From Desulfotomaculum sp. (GTDB lineage: Bacteria > Bacillota > Desulfotomaculia > Desulfotomaculales > Nap2-2B): a stretch of 64,000 bases of DNA. This document shows, piece after piece, positions 2,807-9,533 of the stretch; position 1 is the stretch's first letter; each line of letters opens with the position of its first letter. Made by a program: the position numbers and the translations under genes. The DNA is taken from assembly GCA_003513005.1 (NCBI GenBank), contig DOTD01000017.1, positions 758-64,757 of the forward strand, read 5' to 3'. The notes beneath the pieces are model-generated. The model was not told the origin of the DNA and ran no database searches. It saw nothing but the letters and a program-made list of their open reading frames with translations.

Positions 2807-2833
2807 AAAAAAACCGCCTTTTAAACGGCGGTT
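2807..2833 (-). terminator. Intrinsic terminator after aroF
   Basis: Minus strand AACCGCC-GTTTAAAA-GGCGGTT followed by a T tract. Confidence 0.85.
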
Positions 2834-2862: not shown

Positions 2863-3879
2863 TTAAAGATTCTTTCCCATTACCTTGGCAATATTACGCA
2901 AATCAGCCATCATAGCGGCGAATTTTACCGGGTTAAGTGATTGCGGACCATCACACCAGGCTGTCTCGGGACTTACATGAACTTCAATTATAAGCCCGTC
3001 CGCTCCGGAAGCTATGGCAGCACGAGACATTGCCGGTACAAATCTCCACTTTCCAATCCCATGGCTGGGATCGGCAACAACCGGAAGGTGGCTTAAATGT
3101 TTGACTACGGGAATAGCACAGAGATCCAGGGTGTTGCGTGTATAAGTATCAAAACTGCGTATACCGCGCTCGCACATAATTACGTTATGATTTCCGCCGG
3201 CCATAATATACTCCGCCGCCATAAGCCATTCTTCTATAGTGGCTGACAGACCCCTTTTAAGAAGGACTGGTTTATTAACAGAAGAGACTTCCTTTAACAA
3301 AACGAAGTTCTGCATATTACGGGCGCCGATTTGTATTATGTCGGTATACTCATTGACTACTTCCACAGTGCGCGTATCCATTACTTCAGTAACAATATAA
3401 AGACCTGTGGCTTCCCTGGCCTCAGCGAGCAGCTTGAGTCCTTCCTCCTCCAATCCCTGAAAAGAATATGGCGATGTCCGGGGTTTAAAGGCGCCGCCGC
3501 GCAGAATAGTAGCGCCTGCCTCTTTAACCTGCCAGGCTGTTTCAAAAAGCTGTTCCCGGCTTTCAACGGCGCATGGCCCTGCCATTATATGGATCGTATC
3601 GCCACCTATAACCAGATTCCCTACCTTTACTGAGGAATCCTCTTGTTTGAAAGACCTGCTGGCCATTTTAAACGGCTGAAGAATGGGAATGATTTTTTCT
3701 ACCCCAGGCATTACTTCCAGACTGAGGACTTCGGGATAATTACGCTTGTCTCCAACAACGCCGATTAATGTTTGCTCCATACCGCGTGAAACATGCGCCT
3801 GTAATCCAGCGTTTTCGACCCGTCTGACAACATCGTCGATCTGTTCCTCTTTCGCCCCGTTAACCATAACAACAATCAT
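2863..3879 (-). CDS. aroF: DAHP synthase type I-beta with N-terminal ferredoxin-like regulatory domain
   Basis: [32 protein letters not shown] and DPSHG motifs; SD-supported ATG at 3879. Confidence 0.93.
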
Positions 3880-3992
3880 TTCTCCAACCTCTTCCCGTAT
3901 GCTCTTTTTTCTCTGTCTATATAATGTTAGCATAGCTGTTTCCCTCAAGCAATCTCTTTTTTATCAAGAAAGAGCCATCTTTATTTCTTTTA

Positions 3993-4610
3993 TTATAAGT
4001 GAGTTACCTCTTTCACCGAATTGATAAACTGCATAATTTTTACAAGATCTTTTTTTTGGTTTGTCTCGACCCCGCTGCTTACATCTACACCATCCGGCCT
4101 CACAGACAGGACAGCTTCTTTTACATTGGATTGATTAAGTCCTCCCGCTAAAATCACCGGTTTTGTCCTGTTTAAGGATTCAAGGGATTTCCAGTCAAAG
4201 ACTTCACCTGTCCCGCCTGCCTTGCCCGGTAAGAAGGTATCAATAAGAACGGCGTCGGCGGGGTAAGAATCTATTAAACCGAATAGAGGGCTTTGAACGT
4301 TGAAGGCCTTGATAACCTTACAGTTACCGTTAATCTGCCGGCAGTATTCCTGTGATTCATCGCCATGCAGCTGAGCAATATCCAGGCGGCAAAACTCTAT
4401 TATTTGTTGAACTTCCTTAATTGTTGAATTAACAAATACACCGGCTTTTAAGACCCTTGATGGAAGCTCCAGGGAAATTAGGCGGGCCGCTTCCGGTGCA
4501 ATCCTTCTTATACTGGGCGCAAAAACAAAACCCAGCGCATCTGCGCCGGCTTCCGCTGAATAAAGGGCGGTTTCCAAATCAGTTATCCCGCAAATCTTTA
4601 CCCAGACCAT
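3993..4610 (-). CDS. trpF: Phosphoribosylanthranilate isomerase
   Basis: VKICGIT, QLHGDE, GGTG and LAGGL/GVDVSSGVE motifs. Confidence 0.95.
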   Translation of the reverse strand: MVWVKICGITDLETALYSAEAGADALGFVFAPSIRRIAPEAARLISLELPSRVLKAGVFVNSTIKEVQQIIEFCRLDIAQLHGDESQEYCRQINGNCKVIKAFNVQSPLFGLIDSYPADAVLIDTFLPGKAGGTGEVFDWKSLESLNRTKPVILAGGLNQSNVKEAVLSVRPDGVDVSSGVETNQKKDLVKIMQFINSVKEVTHL

Positions 4611-4611
4611 A

Positions 4612-5403
4612 TCAATATACTCCTGTCAGTTCTTTTACTTTTGCTTTAATATTTTCACTGCGCATTAAAACTTCACCAACCAGGACAGCGTCTATTTTAT
4701 TGCGATACAGCTCATCAACCTGCGGCCTGCTGCTTATTCCGCTTTCGCTGACTACTACTGTGGATTGATCAGTTATATAGCGCCGCAGATTAAAAGTAAC
4801 ATTTAGATCAATTTCAAACGTTTTTAAATCCCGGTTGTTAATACCGATTAAAGAGGCGCCTGAATCTAAGGCCATTTGAAGTTCTTCCTTATTATGGACT
4901 TCTACAAGGCACTCCAGGTTCAACTCTGACGCCAGTTTTTGAAAAAAGACAAGTTCATACTTATTAAGAACTGCGACAATCAGCAGCAGGGCGTCTCCTC
5001 CAAGTACTCTCGTTTCATATATCTGATATGGGTCAATAATAAAGTCCTTGCGCAAAACAGGCAATTCTGTTCTTGAACGAACCGCTTGAAGATAATCCGG
5101 CTTTCCATAAAAAAACTTCTCTTCGGTAATTACGGAAATGGCGGAAACTCCGCTGAGGGTGAAGTCATCTGTAATCTCTTCCAGATTAAAATCAGGACGG
5201 ATCATTCCTTTTGAAGGAGATGCCTTTTTAATCTCAGCCAGAATTGATACTCTGCCTTGCTTTCTAAGGGCGGCTTTTAATGACCTGCATGGCGGCATGC
5301 CTTTCAGACTACTTAAAAGTGAATCTAAAGGGCGCCTTTCTTTAATTGTTTTTAGATCATGCCTTTTTTGAGAAATAATCTGTTCCAGAATCACTGACTG
5401 CAC
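4612..5403 (-). CDS. trpC: Indole-3-glycerol phosphate synthase
   Basis: AEIKKASPSKG, LRKDFIIDPYQ and GINNRDL motifs. Confidence 0.95.
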   Translation of the reverse strand: MQSVILEQIISQKRHDLKTIKERRPLDSLLSSLKGMPPCRSLKAALRKQGRVSILAEIKKASPSKGMIRPDFNLEEITDDFTLSGVSAISVITEEKFFYGKPDYLQAVRSRTELPVLRKDFIIDPYQIYETRVLGGDALLLIVAVLNKYELVFFQKLASELNLECLVEVHNKEELQMALDSGASLIGINNRDLKTFEIDLNVTFNLRRYITDQSTVVVSESGISSRPQVDELYRNKIDAVLVGEVLMRSENIKAKVKELTGVY

Positions 5404-6443
5404 ACCTGTTCTTTCGCTGAATTGGTAAACCTGATCAGATGCTGAAGTTTCTTCAACGCAGAACCGTTTGATATGCTTTCTGCCGCCAGATCCAGCCCTT
5501 CGGATAGATCTTTCGCTAACCCGGACGCCATCATCCCAAAAGCCGCATTAATAAGAACGGCATTTGTGCGCGGGCCGCGTTCCCCATGTAAAATAGATAA
5601 GGTATACGCGGCGTTTTCAGATGGAGATCCACCGAAAAGCTCCTTTACCGGAGATTTCGGCAAGCCGTATTTTTCGGGATCAACAGTATATTCACTTATC
5701 TTTTCGTTGTTTATTTCACATACATAGGCGGGTCCGGAAAGGGAAATTTCATCAACTCCCTGAGCGCCGTGGATGACAAAGGAATGATCAGTGCCTAAAC
5801 GGGCAAGCACACCGCCCAGCTTTGTTGTAAGTTCACGATTATATACTCCCAGCACCTGAGCTTTTGCCCCGGCAGGATTGGTCAATGGGCCCAAAACATT
5901 AAAAACCGTACGGATTCCGATTTCCCGGCGCGGCCCCGCAACGTGCTTCATCGCCGAGTGCATTAACGGCGCAAACAGGAAAGCAATACCTGTTTCTTCA
6001 AGGCAGGACTCGATTTGGTCCGGCTCCAGGTCAATGCGGACATTCAGAGCCTCAAGGAGATCAGCCGAACCGCATTTGCTGGAGACGGAACGATTGCCAT
6101 GTTTTGCAACCGGGGCTCCAGCGCCGGCTACTACGAAGGCAGCAGTGGTTGAAATATTAAAGGTGTTGGCGCCGTCTCCGCCTGTTCCGCAGGTATCGAC
6201 AACGACCGGATATTTAGTGTTAATGCGGGTCGCCTTTTTGCGCATTACTTTCACAAAACCGGTAATCTCTTCAATAGTTTCTCCTTTTAATCTTAATGAG
6301 ACCAAAAGCGCTGCTATCTGCGCGGAGGTAGCCTGGCCTTCCATAATTGCTTCCATAACATTTTCAGACTGGCTTTCCGTCAGGTCTTTACCGGCTGTAA
6401 GGTATTCAATTGCTTCCTTGATTATCGAAATATCCTGAGACAT
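5391..6443 (-). CDS. trpD: Anthranilate phosphoribosyltransferase
   Basis: [13 protein letters not shown] and [15 protein letters not shown] motifs; strong SD before ATG at 6443. Confidence 0.95.
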
Positions 6444-7032
6444 CTTTATCTCTTCCTCCTTTGGTATGGTTGTTAATAAAATTGCGCAGCAGGTCAAGGC
6501 CGTGCTCGGTTAAAATCGATTCCGGATGGAACTGAACACCTTCGACCGGCAGTTCCTTATGCCGCAGTCCCATTATTTCACCTTCTGAGGTCCAGGCGCT
6601 AACCGCCAGGCAGGAGGGGAGATTCTCATTTGAGACCATCAAGGAATGATAACGGGTTGCCTGAAACGGGGACGGTATACCTTTGTAAATTCCCCCGCCA
6701 TCGTGGTAGATTAAAGATGTTTTCCCGTGCATCAAACGTCCGGCGTTGACAACACGCCCGCCAAAAGCCTGGCCGATAGCCTGATGCCCAAGGCAGACAC
6801 CCAGTATGGGTATACGGCCGGCTAACTTACTGATTACATCAAGTGAGATTCCTGCTTGATCGGGCGAACCGGGACCCGGAGAGATAACGATGTGGGTTGG
6901 ATTTATTTGTTTCAACTGCGGCAGATTAATCTGGTCGTTGCGCCAAACGCCCACTTCTACCTTTAATTGTCCGAAATATTGAACCAGGTTGAAGGTAAAT
7001 GAGTCGTAGTTATCAATCATTACCAGCAACAA
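6406..7032 (-). CDS. trpG: Anthranilate synthase component II (glutamine amidotransferase)
   Basis: [20 protein letters not shown] and QFHPES motifs; SD plus TTG start. Confidence 0.95.
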
Positions 7033-7050
7033 TAGCGCCTCCTTTTGTGG

Positions 7051-7112
7051 TAAATTAATTTTTGCTTTAGGGGGGTCAACTGCCTACATGCCAAGATATT
7101 GACCCCTTTTTT
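7051..7112. repeat. Internal fragment of dispersed repeat, rearranged into a hairpin between trpE and trpG
   Basis: 7068-7091 matches the reverse complement of 49386-49409 at 22/24 nt. The GGGGTCAA...TTGACCCC hairpin has its T6 tract on the plus (antisense) strand. Confidence 0.65.
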
Positions 7113-7127
7113 GATGAATTATCCCTT

Positions 7128-8603
7128 TTATGAAAGAGCAATAGTCTGGAATAATGCCTGAGCCTTATTAACAGTTTCCTGATACTCTTTTTCAGGTTCT
7201 GAGTCGGCGACAATTCCTGCTCCTGCCTGAATATACGCATAATTCCGGTGAAATAAAATAGTCCTGATTGTGATTGCGGAGTCCAGATTGCCATTATAGC
7301 CAAAATACCCGACCGCTCCTGCATAAGGTCCCCGTTTTGACGGTTCAAGTTCATCGATAATTTCCATAGCCCTTACTTTAGGAGCGCCGGAAACCGTTCC
7401 TGCCGGGAAACATGACTTTAATGCGTCAAACGCAGTAAGACCAGGGGAAAGTTTACCGCGGACAGCGGATACCAAATGCATTACATGCGAATATTTTTCT
7501 ACTTCCATGAACTGAGGGACCTCGACCGTTCCAGGTTTGCAAACACGTCCCAGGTCGTTTCGTCCCAAATCGACAAGCATAATATGTTCCGCTTTTTCTT
7601 TAGGGTCGTCTAAAAGTTCCAGACTTAATTTTTCGTCCTCCAGGTGAGTGGCGCCGCGTGGTCTTGTTCCCGCTATCGGTCTGGTTTCAACTTCATCTTC
7701 CTCAACGCGCGCCAGCATTTCCGGTGAGGAACTGGCTATAACCAAATCTCCGAAATCAATATAATAAAGATATGGAGAGGGATTTATTGAACGCAAACGA
7801 CGGTAAGTTTGAAAAGGATTACCTTCAAAGGGAAGACGGAAACGCTGCGAAAGCACGACTTGAAGAATGTCTCCGCTTCTGATATATTCTTTTGCTTTAA
7901 CCACACCGTTTAGAAAAACTTCACGTTTCATATTGCTTTCAATGCCTGATACGCTTATTATTTCTTCATGTTTAGCTGTTAAAAAATCATTTTCACCAGG
8001 AACGGGCGCACTTATTTTTTTAAAAACCCGCTCAATTTTTTCCAGGGCCAGGGAATAAGACTTCTCCGGCGATCCATTTATAGTGTTGTTAACCACGATA
8101 CGAAGTGAATGGTGCAGGTGGTCAAAAATCAAAATTGTTCCGCAGAACATGAACATGCAATCACAAAGACCGAGATCAGCTTCTGCTGTATGTGGAAGCC
8201 GTTCAAGCCATTGGGACATTTCATAACCGAAATAGCCTACAGCTCCTCCAAAAAATCTTGGCATCACGGTCTGTACAGGTGTTATATAGGCGCTGAGGAG
8301 ATTATTTAGAATCTTGAAGGGATCACCTGTTACTTTCTTGATCTTCTCGCCTGAATTATTTTTGATCTGGCCGTGATTACCAAGGTGGCTGTATAGGATC
8401 TCCGGATCGAGACCAATAAAAGAATAGCGGGCAATCTTTTCCTTTCCTTCAACGCTTTCCAGAAGAAAAGACGGTCTTCCGTCAGCTGTTTTCCTGAACA
8501 ATGTTATTGGTGTTTCAGTGTCAACGGGGAATTCGCAGCTAACAGGAATCAGGTTGTAGAACTTGCTTAATTGGATGTACTCATTTAACACAGGCTCAAT
8601 CAA
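7128..8603 (-). CDS. trpE: Anthranilate synthase component I
   Basis: FLLESVEG, SPYLYY, RPIAGTRPRG, EHIMLVDLGRND and PAGTVSGAPK motifs. Confidence 0.95.
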   Translation of the reverse strand: MIEPVLNEYIQLSKFYNLIPVSCEFPVDTETPITLFRKTADGRPSFLLESVEGKEKIARYSFIGLDPEILYSHLGNHGQIKNNSGEKIKKVTGDPFKILNNLLSAYITPVQTVMPRFFGGAVGYFGYEMSQWLERLPHTAEADLGLCDCMFMFCGTILIFDHLHHSLRIVVNNTINGSPEKSYSLALEKIERVFKKISAPVPGENDFLTAKHEEIISVSGIESNMKREVFLNGVVKAKEYIRSGDILQVVLSQRFRLPFEGNPFQTYRRLRSINPSPYLYYIDFGDLVIASSSPEMLARVEEDEVETRPIAGTRPRGATHLEDEKLSLELLDDPKEKAEHIMLVDLGRNDLGRVCKPGTVEVPQFMEVEKYSHVMHLVSAVRGKLSPGLTAFDALKSCFPAGTVSGAPKVRAMEIIDELEPSKRGPYAGAVGYFGYNGNLDSAITIRTILFHRNYAYIQAGAGIVADSEPEKEYQETVNKAQALFQTIALS

Positions 8604-8633
8604 TATAGTTTTTCACCTCCTGTACAAAAATAG

Positions 8634-8689
8634 AAAAACCGACGTTCCAGACGAACATCGGTTTTGGGCAAAATAAAAAAACCATGCTC
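8634..8689 (-). terminator. trp leader attenuator: terminator 8634-8665 with overlapping antiterminator
   Basis: AAAACCGATGTTC-GTCTG-GAACGTCGGTTTTT hairpin. The upstream GAGCATGGTTTT can pair with the 5' arm of the terminator. Confidence 0.8.
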
Positions 8690-8723
8690 ATCTCATCTCA
8701 ACTAACTCTACTCAGCTAAACTA
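8687..8723 (-). promoter_or_regulatory. TRAP (MtrB) binding site: 8 (G/U)AG repeats
   Basis: Minus strand TAG tt TAG ct GAG ta GAG t TAG tt GAG at GAG at GAG. Confidence 0.8.
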
Positions 8724-8745
8724 GATAATTATTCAATTATAATAT

Positions 8746-8774
8746 ATTCTAATCATAAAAGAAACAAAAGTCAA
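8746..8774 (-). promoter_or_regulatory. sigmaA promoter of trp operon
   Basis: TTGACT-17 nt-TAGAAT. Confidence 0.75.
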
Positions 8775-8798
8775 TTGTTACTTGTTCTTAGACACCTT

Positions 8799-9443
8799 CT
8801 ACGCTTCACGTTTTTCAAGATATCTTTCCAGCTTTCGCTTAACTCTCTGCAGAGCGTTGTCAATTGATTTTACGTGACGTTTTAAGTCCTCGGCTATTTC
8901 CTGGTAGGACTTACCTTCCAGGTAAGACATAAGCACCTTCCATTCCAGAGAGCTTAGAATTTCACCCATCTTCTCTTCTATGTCATAATATTCTTCCCTG
9001 CTGATGATCATTTCTTCGGGATCTGCTACTTTGGAGCTGGAAATAATATCTAAAAGAGTGCGGTCAGAATCTTCCTCATAAACGGGTTTATTTAAGGATA
9101 CATAAGAATTTAGTGGAATGTGTTTTTGCCTTGTAGCCGTTTTGATGGCTGTAATTATCTGTCTTGTAATACATAATTCCGCAAAGGCCCGGAAGGATGA
9201 TAGCTTGTCCGTTCTAAAATCGCGGATAGCCTTATAAAGACCAATCATACCTTCCTGGATAATATCTTCCCGGTCTGCTCCTACTAAAAAATAGGAACGC
9301 GCTTTTGCCCGCACAAAATTCTTATATTTATTGATAAGGAATTCTAGGGCGCCATTATCACCTTCCCTGGCAAACTCAACTACTTCTTCGTCAATCATTA
9401 ACTGGTAAGAGGCGGCGATATCTCTTTGAACGCTTAGATTCAC
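8799..9443 (-). CDS. sigH: RNA polymerase sporulation sigma factor SigH
   Basis: QEGMIGLYKAIRDF, RQIITAIKTATRQKHIPLNSYVSL and KSIDNALQRVKRKL motifs. Confidence 0.97.
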   Translation of the reverse strand: MNLSVQRDIAASYQLMIDEEVVEFAREGDNGALEFLINKYKNFVRAKARSYFLVGADREDIIQEGMIGLYKAIRDFRTDKLSSFRAFAELCITRQIITAIKTATRQKHIPLNSYVSLNKPVYEEDSDRTLLDIISSSKVADPEEMIISREEYYDIEEKMGEILSSLEWKVLMSYLEGKSYQEIAEDLKRHVKSIDNALQRVKRKLERYLEKREA

Positions 9444-9533
9444 TATATCCCCCCACTTTAATTAACCTAATCTGTTAGTTAAATAATATGTAGTTATTGA
9501 GCTACCCTTGGACGAGCCTCATTGGCCTAGCCT

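Follow-up and report, generated by a model that had tools for sequence, protein, structure and literature searches.

The 195-nt gap between a sigH-like gene and trpE, on the minus strand of the window (the whole 64,000-nt stretch of DNA that was analyzed), very probably holds a transcription attenuator that depends on TRAP (MtrB) and controls the trpE-G-D-C-F-aroF operon. All of the elements that an earlier note on this DNA had listed for the leader were read from the sequence at 8634-8774, minus strand, in the order that it gave. The leader is a clear but ordinary case of a known TRAP switch and adds little to the mechanism. The host is an uncultured Desulfotomaculia-like anaerobe, for which a textbook switch of this kind is predicted from the sequence.

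In the proposed mechanism, transcription would start about 16 nt upstream of an array of eight (U/G)AG triplets. Under tryptophan scarcity, TRAP would be inactive and the nascent RNA would form an antiterminator, in which 8692-8678 pairs with 8665-8650. The antiterminator would sequester the left arm of the terminator, and RNA polymerase would read into trpE. When tryptophan is plentiful, the Trp-loaded TRAP ring would wrap the eight triplets and keep the last of them, which belong to the 5' arm of the antiterminator, single-stranded. The 13-bp terminator could then form, and transcription would stop at the U-run before trpE. TRAP binding of the leader RNA, Trp-dependent termination and the co-regulation of aroF are the three parts of this scheme that we infer from sequence.

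Organization of the trp leader

The leader is bounded upstream by the gene of a sigH-like sigma factor (8799-9443) with Sigma70_r2/r4 domains. A sigma-A-type trp promoter was recognized at 8746..8774, minus strand, with the -35 box TTGACT at 8774-8769, a 17-nt spacer and the -10 box TAGAAT at 8751-8746. It matches the consensus at 10 of 12 positions, and both boxes are kept in five of five same-genus leaders. Transcription is predicted to start near 8739, which gives a trp leader of about 135 nt. A search for RNA-seq runs gave none that contains this locus. About 22 A/U-rich nucleotides lie between the -10 box and the array, which begins some 16 nt past the predicted start. Because only these 16 or so nucleotides precede the array, there is no room for a 5' stem-loop, and its presence is unlikely. 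In transcript order, the array is separated from the terminator by CAUGGUUUUUUUAUUUUGCCC. The ribosome-binding site and start of trpE (8601..8621, minus strand) consist of the Shine-Dalgarno sequence AGGAGGTG at 8621-8614 and a TTG start codon at 8603-8601, and are kept in relatives.

Between the end of the sigH-like gene and the trp -35 box lie 24 nt, with no terminator that would serve the sigH-like gene itself (8775-8801 in the window). Since such a terminator is lacking, transcripts that run on from sigH may reach the trp leader and end at the attenuator. At one related locus (L014), a terminator-like hairpin with a T-run and about 100 extra nucleotides were found between sigH and the trp promoter.

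The (U/G)AG triplet array

The putative TRAP-binding array of eight (U/G)AG triplets (8687..8723, minus strand) reads TAG tt TAG ct GAG ta GAG t TAG tt GAG at GAG at GAG. Six of the spacers are 2 nt long and one, in GAG t TAG, is 1 nt long. The whole assembly (2.49 Mb, 101 contigs) was scanned on both strands for (G/U)AG chains. Four chains with at least six triplets and 1-3-nt spacers were found in the genome, one being the trpE leader and the other three sitting in two tandem repeats, (TAGTAAGAGAT)n on contig C33 and (TAG)n on contig C101. A weighted chain score was also calculated, in which AAG was allowed and odd spacers were penalized. By this measure, the trpE leader array ranked first among the non-tandem arrays genome-wide with a score of 7.25, and a chain on contig C63 ranked second with 6.4. 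The maxima in ten first-order Markov shuffles of the whole genome were 4.25-5.9, and a score of 6.4 was never reached. The description of eight triplets mostly 2 nt apart was confirmed, with the array standing above all ten genome shuffles, and a chance origin of the array is excluded. Moreover, each of the two top-ranking (U/G)AG chains belongs to a trp leader, which is very hard to explain without a regulator that reads triplets.

These results bear on the alternative that the leader is not regulated and consists of a sigH terminator and a purine-rich repeat produced by chance or slippage. Such an origin would fit with the other (U/G)AG-rich stretches of this genome, on C33 and C101, which are nothing but hypervariable tandem repeats. 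However, the trpE array is not a tandem repeat, it exceeds all of the shuffles and it is conserved before trpE across genera, while a second array precedes the other trp cluster of the genome. The absence of regulation is therefore extremely improbable.

Most Bacillus leaders have 11 NAG triplets with 2-3-nt spacers (PMC3184956), and TRAP sites comprise 9-11 repeats (PMC4347634). With eight triplets, the present array falls short of the 9-11 described for B. subtilis sites, and its 1-nt spacer lies outside the usual 2-3 nt. This odd spacer is conserved in the genus, and further genera of the family also have one (TAG g TAG, TAG t TAG). One could imagine that TRAP acts on a shortened operator, split 4 + 4 around the 1-nt spacer, and that the (TAGTAAGAGAT)x10 repeat on C33 is a TRAP site as well, a combination that we regard as unlikely. 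If the split operator were real, its binding geometry would be unlike the uniform wrap of the Bacillus complexes.

Alternative structures of the leader RNA

In the antiterminator hairpin (8650..8692, minus strand), the 5' arm GAUGAGCAUGGUUUU at 8692-8678 pairs with AAAACC(G)AUGUUCGUC at 8665-8650, forming 15 bp with one bulged G and a predicted energy of -14.0 kcal/mol. Triplet 8 lies wholly within the 5' arm, as does the final G of triplet 7, and the 3' arm corresponds to the 5' arm of the terminator and part of its loop. An antiterminator that takes in the last GAG and overlaps the terminator is therefore present, as the earlier note had claimed, although at 15 bp it is slightly longer than described there. 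The intrinsic terminator, or attenuator (8626..8665, minus strand), has a 13-bp stem and a 5-nt loop, AAAACCGAUGUUC-GUCUG-GAACGUCGGUUUU (8665-8635), followed by the U-rich tail UCUAUUUUU, and is predicted at -17.5 kcal/mol.

Folding of the leader agreed with the switch that had been proposed for it. Nascent RNA extending up to the terminator loop folds as the antiterminator, and when the array is held single-stranded the terminator is obtained. For the full-length RNA, the predicted energies favor the terminator over the antiterminator (-17.5 vs. -14.0 kcal/mol). Since the terminator is the more stable of the two, read-through under tryptophan limitation would have to be kinetic and depend on co-transcriptional folding.

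The greater predicted stability of the terminator would also suit an explanation in which TRAP binds the array but its main output differs from the choice between antiterminator and terminator. The terminator would then be largely constitutive and would also end the sigH transcripts, and TRAP would act through protein-induced termination, RNA stability or translation. The lack of a sigH terminator before the trp promoter in the window is consistent with this explanation, as is the use of a translational-type site on trpD2 in a genome of another family (G021). Furthermore, B. subtilis TRAP is reported to promote termination beyond freeing the attenuator hairpin (PMC3064811, PMC3913778). However, the nascent RNA takes up the antiterminator fold, which is conserved and includes a compensatory change. 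The array also ends 66 nt before the Shine-Dalgarno sequence, and no anti-Shine-Dalgarno segment is evident in the leader. A main output other than the antiterminator/terminator choice is thus quite doubtful.

A further candidate was ribosome-mediated attenuation through a leader peptide. A 29-codon open reading frame (MVFLFCPKPMFVWNVGFSIFVQEVKNYID and stop; 8599-8685, minus strand), with its ATG in GAGCATGG (8685), overlaps the antiterminator and the terminator, and one Trp codon, TGG, is found in the terminator loop (8649-8647). However, the reading frame has no good Shine-Dalgarno sequence and only this single Trp codon. Moreover, the ATG is missing at two related loci (L015 and L016) and the TGG is changed to TGC at L014. 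Leader-peptide attenuation was rejected, with hardly any likelihood left to it, because the reading frame is not conserved in relatives while the array and hairpins are.

Conservation of the leader

The elements of the proposed attenuator are shared with related genomes. The closest public records are the MAGs Firmicutes bacterium UBA5766 and UBA4049 and Desulfotomaculum sp. UBA7919, in which TrpE is 88-90% identical. The promoter, array, antiterminator, terminator and Shine-Dalgarno sequence are kept in four of four same-genus leaders. These relatives carry one extra triplet, and the window is shorter by a clean 5-nt gap, that is, a triplet and its spacer. An indel of this type would be expected under selection for the 5-nt register.

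In an alignment of five leaders, 94.7% of the antiterminator cells were paired, compared with 36-54% when the helix was slid, and one G-C to A-U compensatory pair was found. The terminator gave 93.8% paired cells, compared with 48-62% when slid, and one of its pairs occurs as an A-U / G-U / G-C series. The covariation is supportive and not decisive because it comes from five close sequences, with one compensatory pair per helix and shuffle controls on helix pairing that were not significant.

At a greater distance, at least 22 of 30 trpE leaders from other genera and families of the order have 5-11 triplets followed by a terminator. Several of the 30 loci in this survey (e.g. L143, L147, L154 and L161) were not counted because the offset assumption failed or the array was very short. 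Genera with diverged flanks still have the array in the same position ahead of trpE, and the terminator of the leader is often CCGGYRCUCAUUUGAGYGCCGGUUUUU across the order. The design of an array and a terminator before trpE is widespread in Desulfotomaculia-like lineages.

The TRAP protein and its distribution

The prediction that mtrB would be encoded outside the window was borne out. A six-frame search of the genome with PF02081 gave one match, at G000:C91:36683-36883. The single-copy protein scored 137.8-138.6 bits against this profile (TrpBP; cut-off 21.3) and covered profile positions 2-68/69. MtrB is 78 aa long, and 47 of 68 residues (~69%) are shared with the TRAP chain of PDB 1C9S in an end-to-end alignment. 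In B. subtilis numbering, the RNA-binding residues of TRAP established by structural studies are Phe32, Glu36, Lys37, Asp39, Lys56 and Arg58. All six RNA-contact residues (F32, E36, K37, D39, K56, R58) are identical when MtrB is compared with 1C9S and related chains (...DTRFHHTEKLDKGE...SAIKIRGK...). The Trp-pocket motifs GLTRGKDTRFHH and AQFTEHTSA match the crystallized TRAPs except at one non-conserved position, and the pocket loops are kept as GLTRGxDTxFHH and AQFTEHTS. A known residue of the Trp pocket is Thr30 (PMC1474065). Lys15 and Thr72 have been linked to the formation of TRAP 12-mers (PMC3184956); MtrB has Leu and Asn at these positions, a weak hint that its ring may be an 11-mer rather than a 12-mer.

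At 12 of the 13 loci from the order, mtrB is flanked on one side by dnaE and on the other by a 63-aa DUF2007 open reading frame that is conserved and followed by pfkA or accD; the downstream gene at the C91 locus is pfkA. The DUF2007 reading frame has the motif MWTVVYIAP...EILVPE.E.DEA.E.I. It was considered as a TRAP partner and rejected. Since it is present in 5 of 17 mtrB-negative genomes, it is probably just a syntenic neighbor. The dnaE gene beside mtrB shows an intein-like C-terminal junction between ...THNFLANGFVVHN and SHSAAYA..., and the same motif was seen at another locus (L013).

Conceivably, the reader of the array is not TRAP but a HutP-like binder of UAG repeats or some undescribed factor, in which case mtrB would serve other targets. 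HutP is a known reader of triplet repeats, and eight triplets with a 1-nt spacer are atypical for TRAP. However, no HutP homologue was found in the genome, and a HutP-like reader was rejected for that reason, whereas a highly conserved mtrB is present. Moreover, mtrB and the arrays co-occur across the order, and an array dominated by GAG with 2-nt spacing is the signature of TRAP (PMC3184956). A reader other than TRAP is very improbable.

The search for mtrB was extended to other genomes. Of the 41 genomes of the order, 37 carry the gene, and a sample of 401 genomes from across the GTDB phylum gave 188 carriers (137 of 271 genera). As a control, 14 named genomes were searched, and B. subtilis alone matched. 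These frequencies in the order and the phylum indicate that a TRAP element is typical of the lineage. The leader had been framed as unusual on the ground that most Firmicutes use T-boxes, and this framing fails for the present lineage. The literature describes TRAP as a Bacillus feature (PMC3435397, PMC7461572). A literature search, which had the comparative study of Gutierrez-Preciado et al. (2007) outside its coverage, found no paper on TRAP outside the Bacilli. TRAP is not confined to the Bacilli, since about half of the sampled genomes in a separate GTDB phylum encode mtrB, and its presence in clostridial lineages will already be visible in protein-family databases.

Alternative sensors of tryptophan

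The leader had been reported to be free of T-box motifs, and this was upheld by an Rfam search of 8000-9500, in which no credible match, T-box RF00230 included, was obtained even at E <= 10. Four T-boxes were located elsewhere in the genome, at C51:122423-122703, C99:34600-34834, C53:4885-5174 and C33:375-635. Three of them precede leuA-like, Lrp/AsnC-type regulator and ilvE-like genes, as read from the N-terminal sequences, and the fourth precedes the gene of a 370-aa protein. None of these four T-boxes is linked to trp or aminoacyl-tRNA synthetase genes. The tandem Trp T-box leaders of other Firmicutes resemble the present leader in their position as trp leaders and in their terminator/antiterminator output. 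They differ in the signal, sensing uncharged tRNA-Trp, whereas the signal here would be free tryptophan acting via TRAP.

Anti-TRAP (PF15777) was absent from the genome above the cut-off, with the only match reaching 24.2 bits against a cut-off of 32. This sub-threshold match lies inside a 380-aa frame and is probably DnaJ.

The operon downstream of the leader

The trp operon spans 2863..8603 on the minus strand. It begins with trpE (7128-8603, TTG start) and trpG (6406-7032, GATase domain), continues with the open reading frames of trpD (5391-~6443), trpC (4612-5403) and trpF (3993-4610), and ends with the gene of an aroF-like DAHP synthase with an N-terminal ferredoxin-like domain (2863-3948; DAHP_synth_1 and DAHP_snth_FXD). 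A strong terminator, AACCGCCGTTTAAAAGGCGGTT followed by a T-run (2812..2833, minus strand), lies after aroF. The repression of aroF by tryptophan, which had been predicted from its place at the end of the operon, is reasonable to expect from the co-orientation of the genes, because no convincing internal promoter or terminator was found from trpE to the DAHP synthase gene and the strong terminator lies past aroF.

The operon lacks trpB and trpA, which are found at a separate locus after an arsC-like gene. No NAG array was found within 700 nt upstream of trpB or the arsC-like gene. Both trpB and trpA are broken across contig ends (C3:24094-24261, C5:9938-10105, C5:4807-5832, C86:27172-27759 and C63:23904-24425). 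Near-identical trpB starts end two contigs, and three trpA fragments, likewise at contig ends, show ~94-95% DNA identity to each other, indicating a strain mixture in the MAG or repeats. Since the genome is a MAG of 101 contigs with signs of strain mixture, the linkage of the C91 mtrB and the C63 leader to the same chromosome rests on binning.

Comparison with the B. subtilis system

The leader of the B. subtilis trpEDCFBA operon has in common with the present one a phased (G/U)AG array with mostly 2-nt spacers, trpE as the first gene, the location of the last triplets in the antiterminator 5' arm, and an overlapping intrinsic terminator. The MtrB proteins are orthologous (PF02081), with the RNA- and Trp-binding residues kept. 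The B. subtilis trp leader has a 5' stem-loop, and mtrB of that organism lies downstream of folE in a folE-mtrB operon, whereas the neighbors of mtrB here are dnaE and the DUF2007 gene/pfkA. The operons differ as well, that of the window having trpG and aroF and no trpBA. Neither an anti-TRAP nor a Trp T-box input is present here, unlike in B. subtilis, and with no room for a 5' stem-loop the system appears simpler.

The attenuation logic of B. subtilis (PMC3064811, PMC4347634) matches the fold switch predicted here. The number of triplets is eight, with the conserved 1-nt spacer, compared with 11 in B. subtilis. With 13 bp, the terminator here is strong; its B. subtilis counterpart has been described as a weak attenuator (PMC3064811). 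The lineage seems to run a minimal TRAP system with 8-9 repeats, a strong terminator, and none of the anti-TRAP, Trp T-box or 5' stem-loop components. Such a minimal version could reveal which parts of the Bacillus circuit are add-ons.

Other arrays and candidate TRAP sites

The earlier note had looked to further arrays to define a regulon, and the second-best chain of the genome scan proved to be a trp leader on C63. This second TRAP-type leader (G000:C63:17046-17079, minus strand) is directly upstream of trpD2-trpC2-trpF2, a divergent paralogous cluster in which TrpD2 is 43% identical to the TrpD of the window. Its array of seven triplets, GAG aa GAG tc AAG tt GAG tt TAG ctc TAG cg GAG, is followed by the terminator ACCAGGGCCGGCUAAGACUCUGGUUUUUUU. 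In the nascent-RNA fold, GAGUC of the array pairs with the right arm of the terminator. In a genome of the same genus (G002), a promoter, an array, a terminator and trpD2 come immediately after trpA, and the trpD2 orthologue is an 89% identical fragment with an in-frame stop. The orthologue in G021 is 78% identical. The second array and terminator at trpD2-C2-F2 suggest a small TRAP regulon.

Several TRAP sites per genome are also a feature of B. subtilis, where trpG(pabA), trpP and ycbK have translational operators. Unlike these operators, both of the sites detected in the genome of the window are of the terminator type, and no array was found over a start codon in that genome except for the non-conserved tandem repeat on C33. 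In G021 (contig C10), a run of six GAG triplets spaced by 2 nt, GAG ac GAG ca GAG aa GAG ga GAG at GAG g ATG, extends over the Shine-Dalgarno sequence and start of trpD2. This would be a translational-repression-type TRAP site and not one of the terminator type, and it matches the RBS-blocking mode known from B. subtilis (PMC4347634). The trpE leader, the trpD2-C2-F2 leader and the translational-type site of G021 form a small natural series of operators for comparative biochemistry.

The C33 repeat (C33:37733-37867, plus strand) is a perfect tandem (TAGTAAGAGAT)x10 followed by AAGAGAGGAGAGGAGAAAG, and contains at least 20 (U/G)AG triplets with 2-3-nt spacers. It runs into the Shine-Dalgarno sequence and GTG start of a gene for an NMT1-type ABC substrate-binding lipoprotein, which is downstream of ubiD-ubiA-ubiX (names read from the sequences). 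As a conserved TRAP target, the repeat was rejected. The same-genus sites have TAGTAAGGAT units or almost none, and distant sites are without an array. Because orthologous sites carry different repeats, it is a hypervariable tandem repeat and no established operator, and it could still bind TRAP in this strain. If it did, transporter control could be evolving fast by repeat expansion, or the repeat could act as a TRAP sponge.
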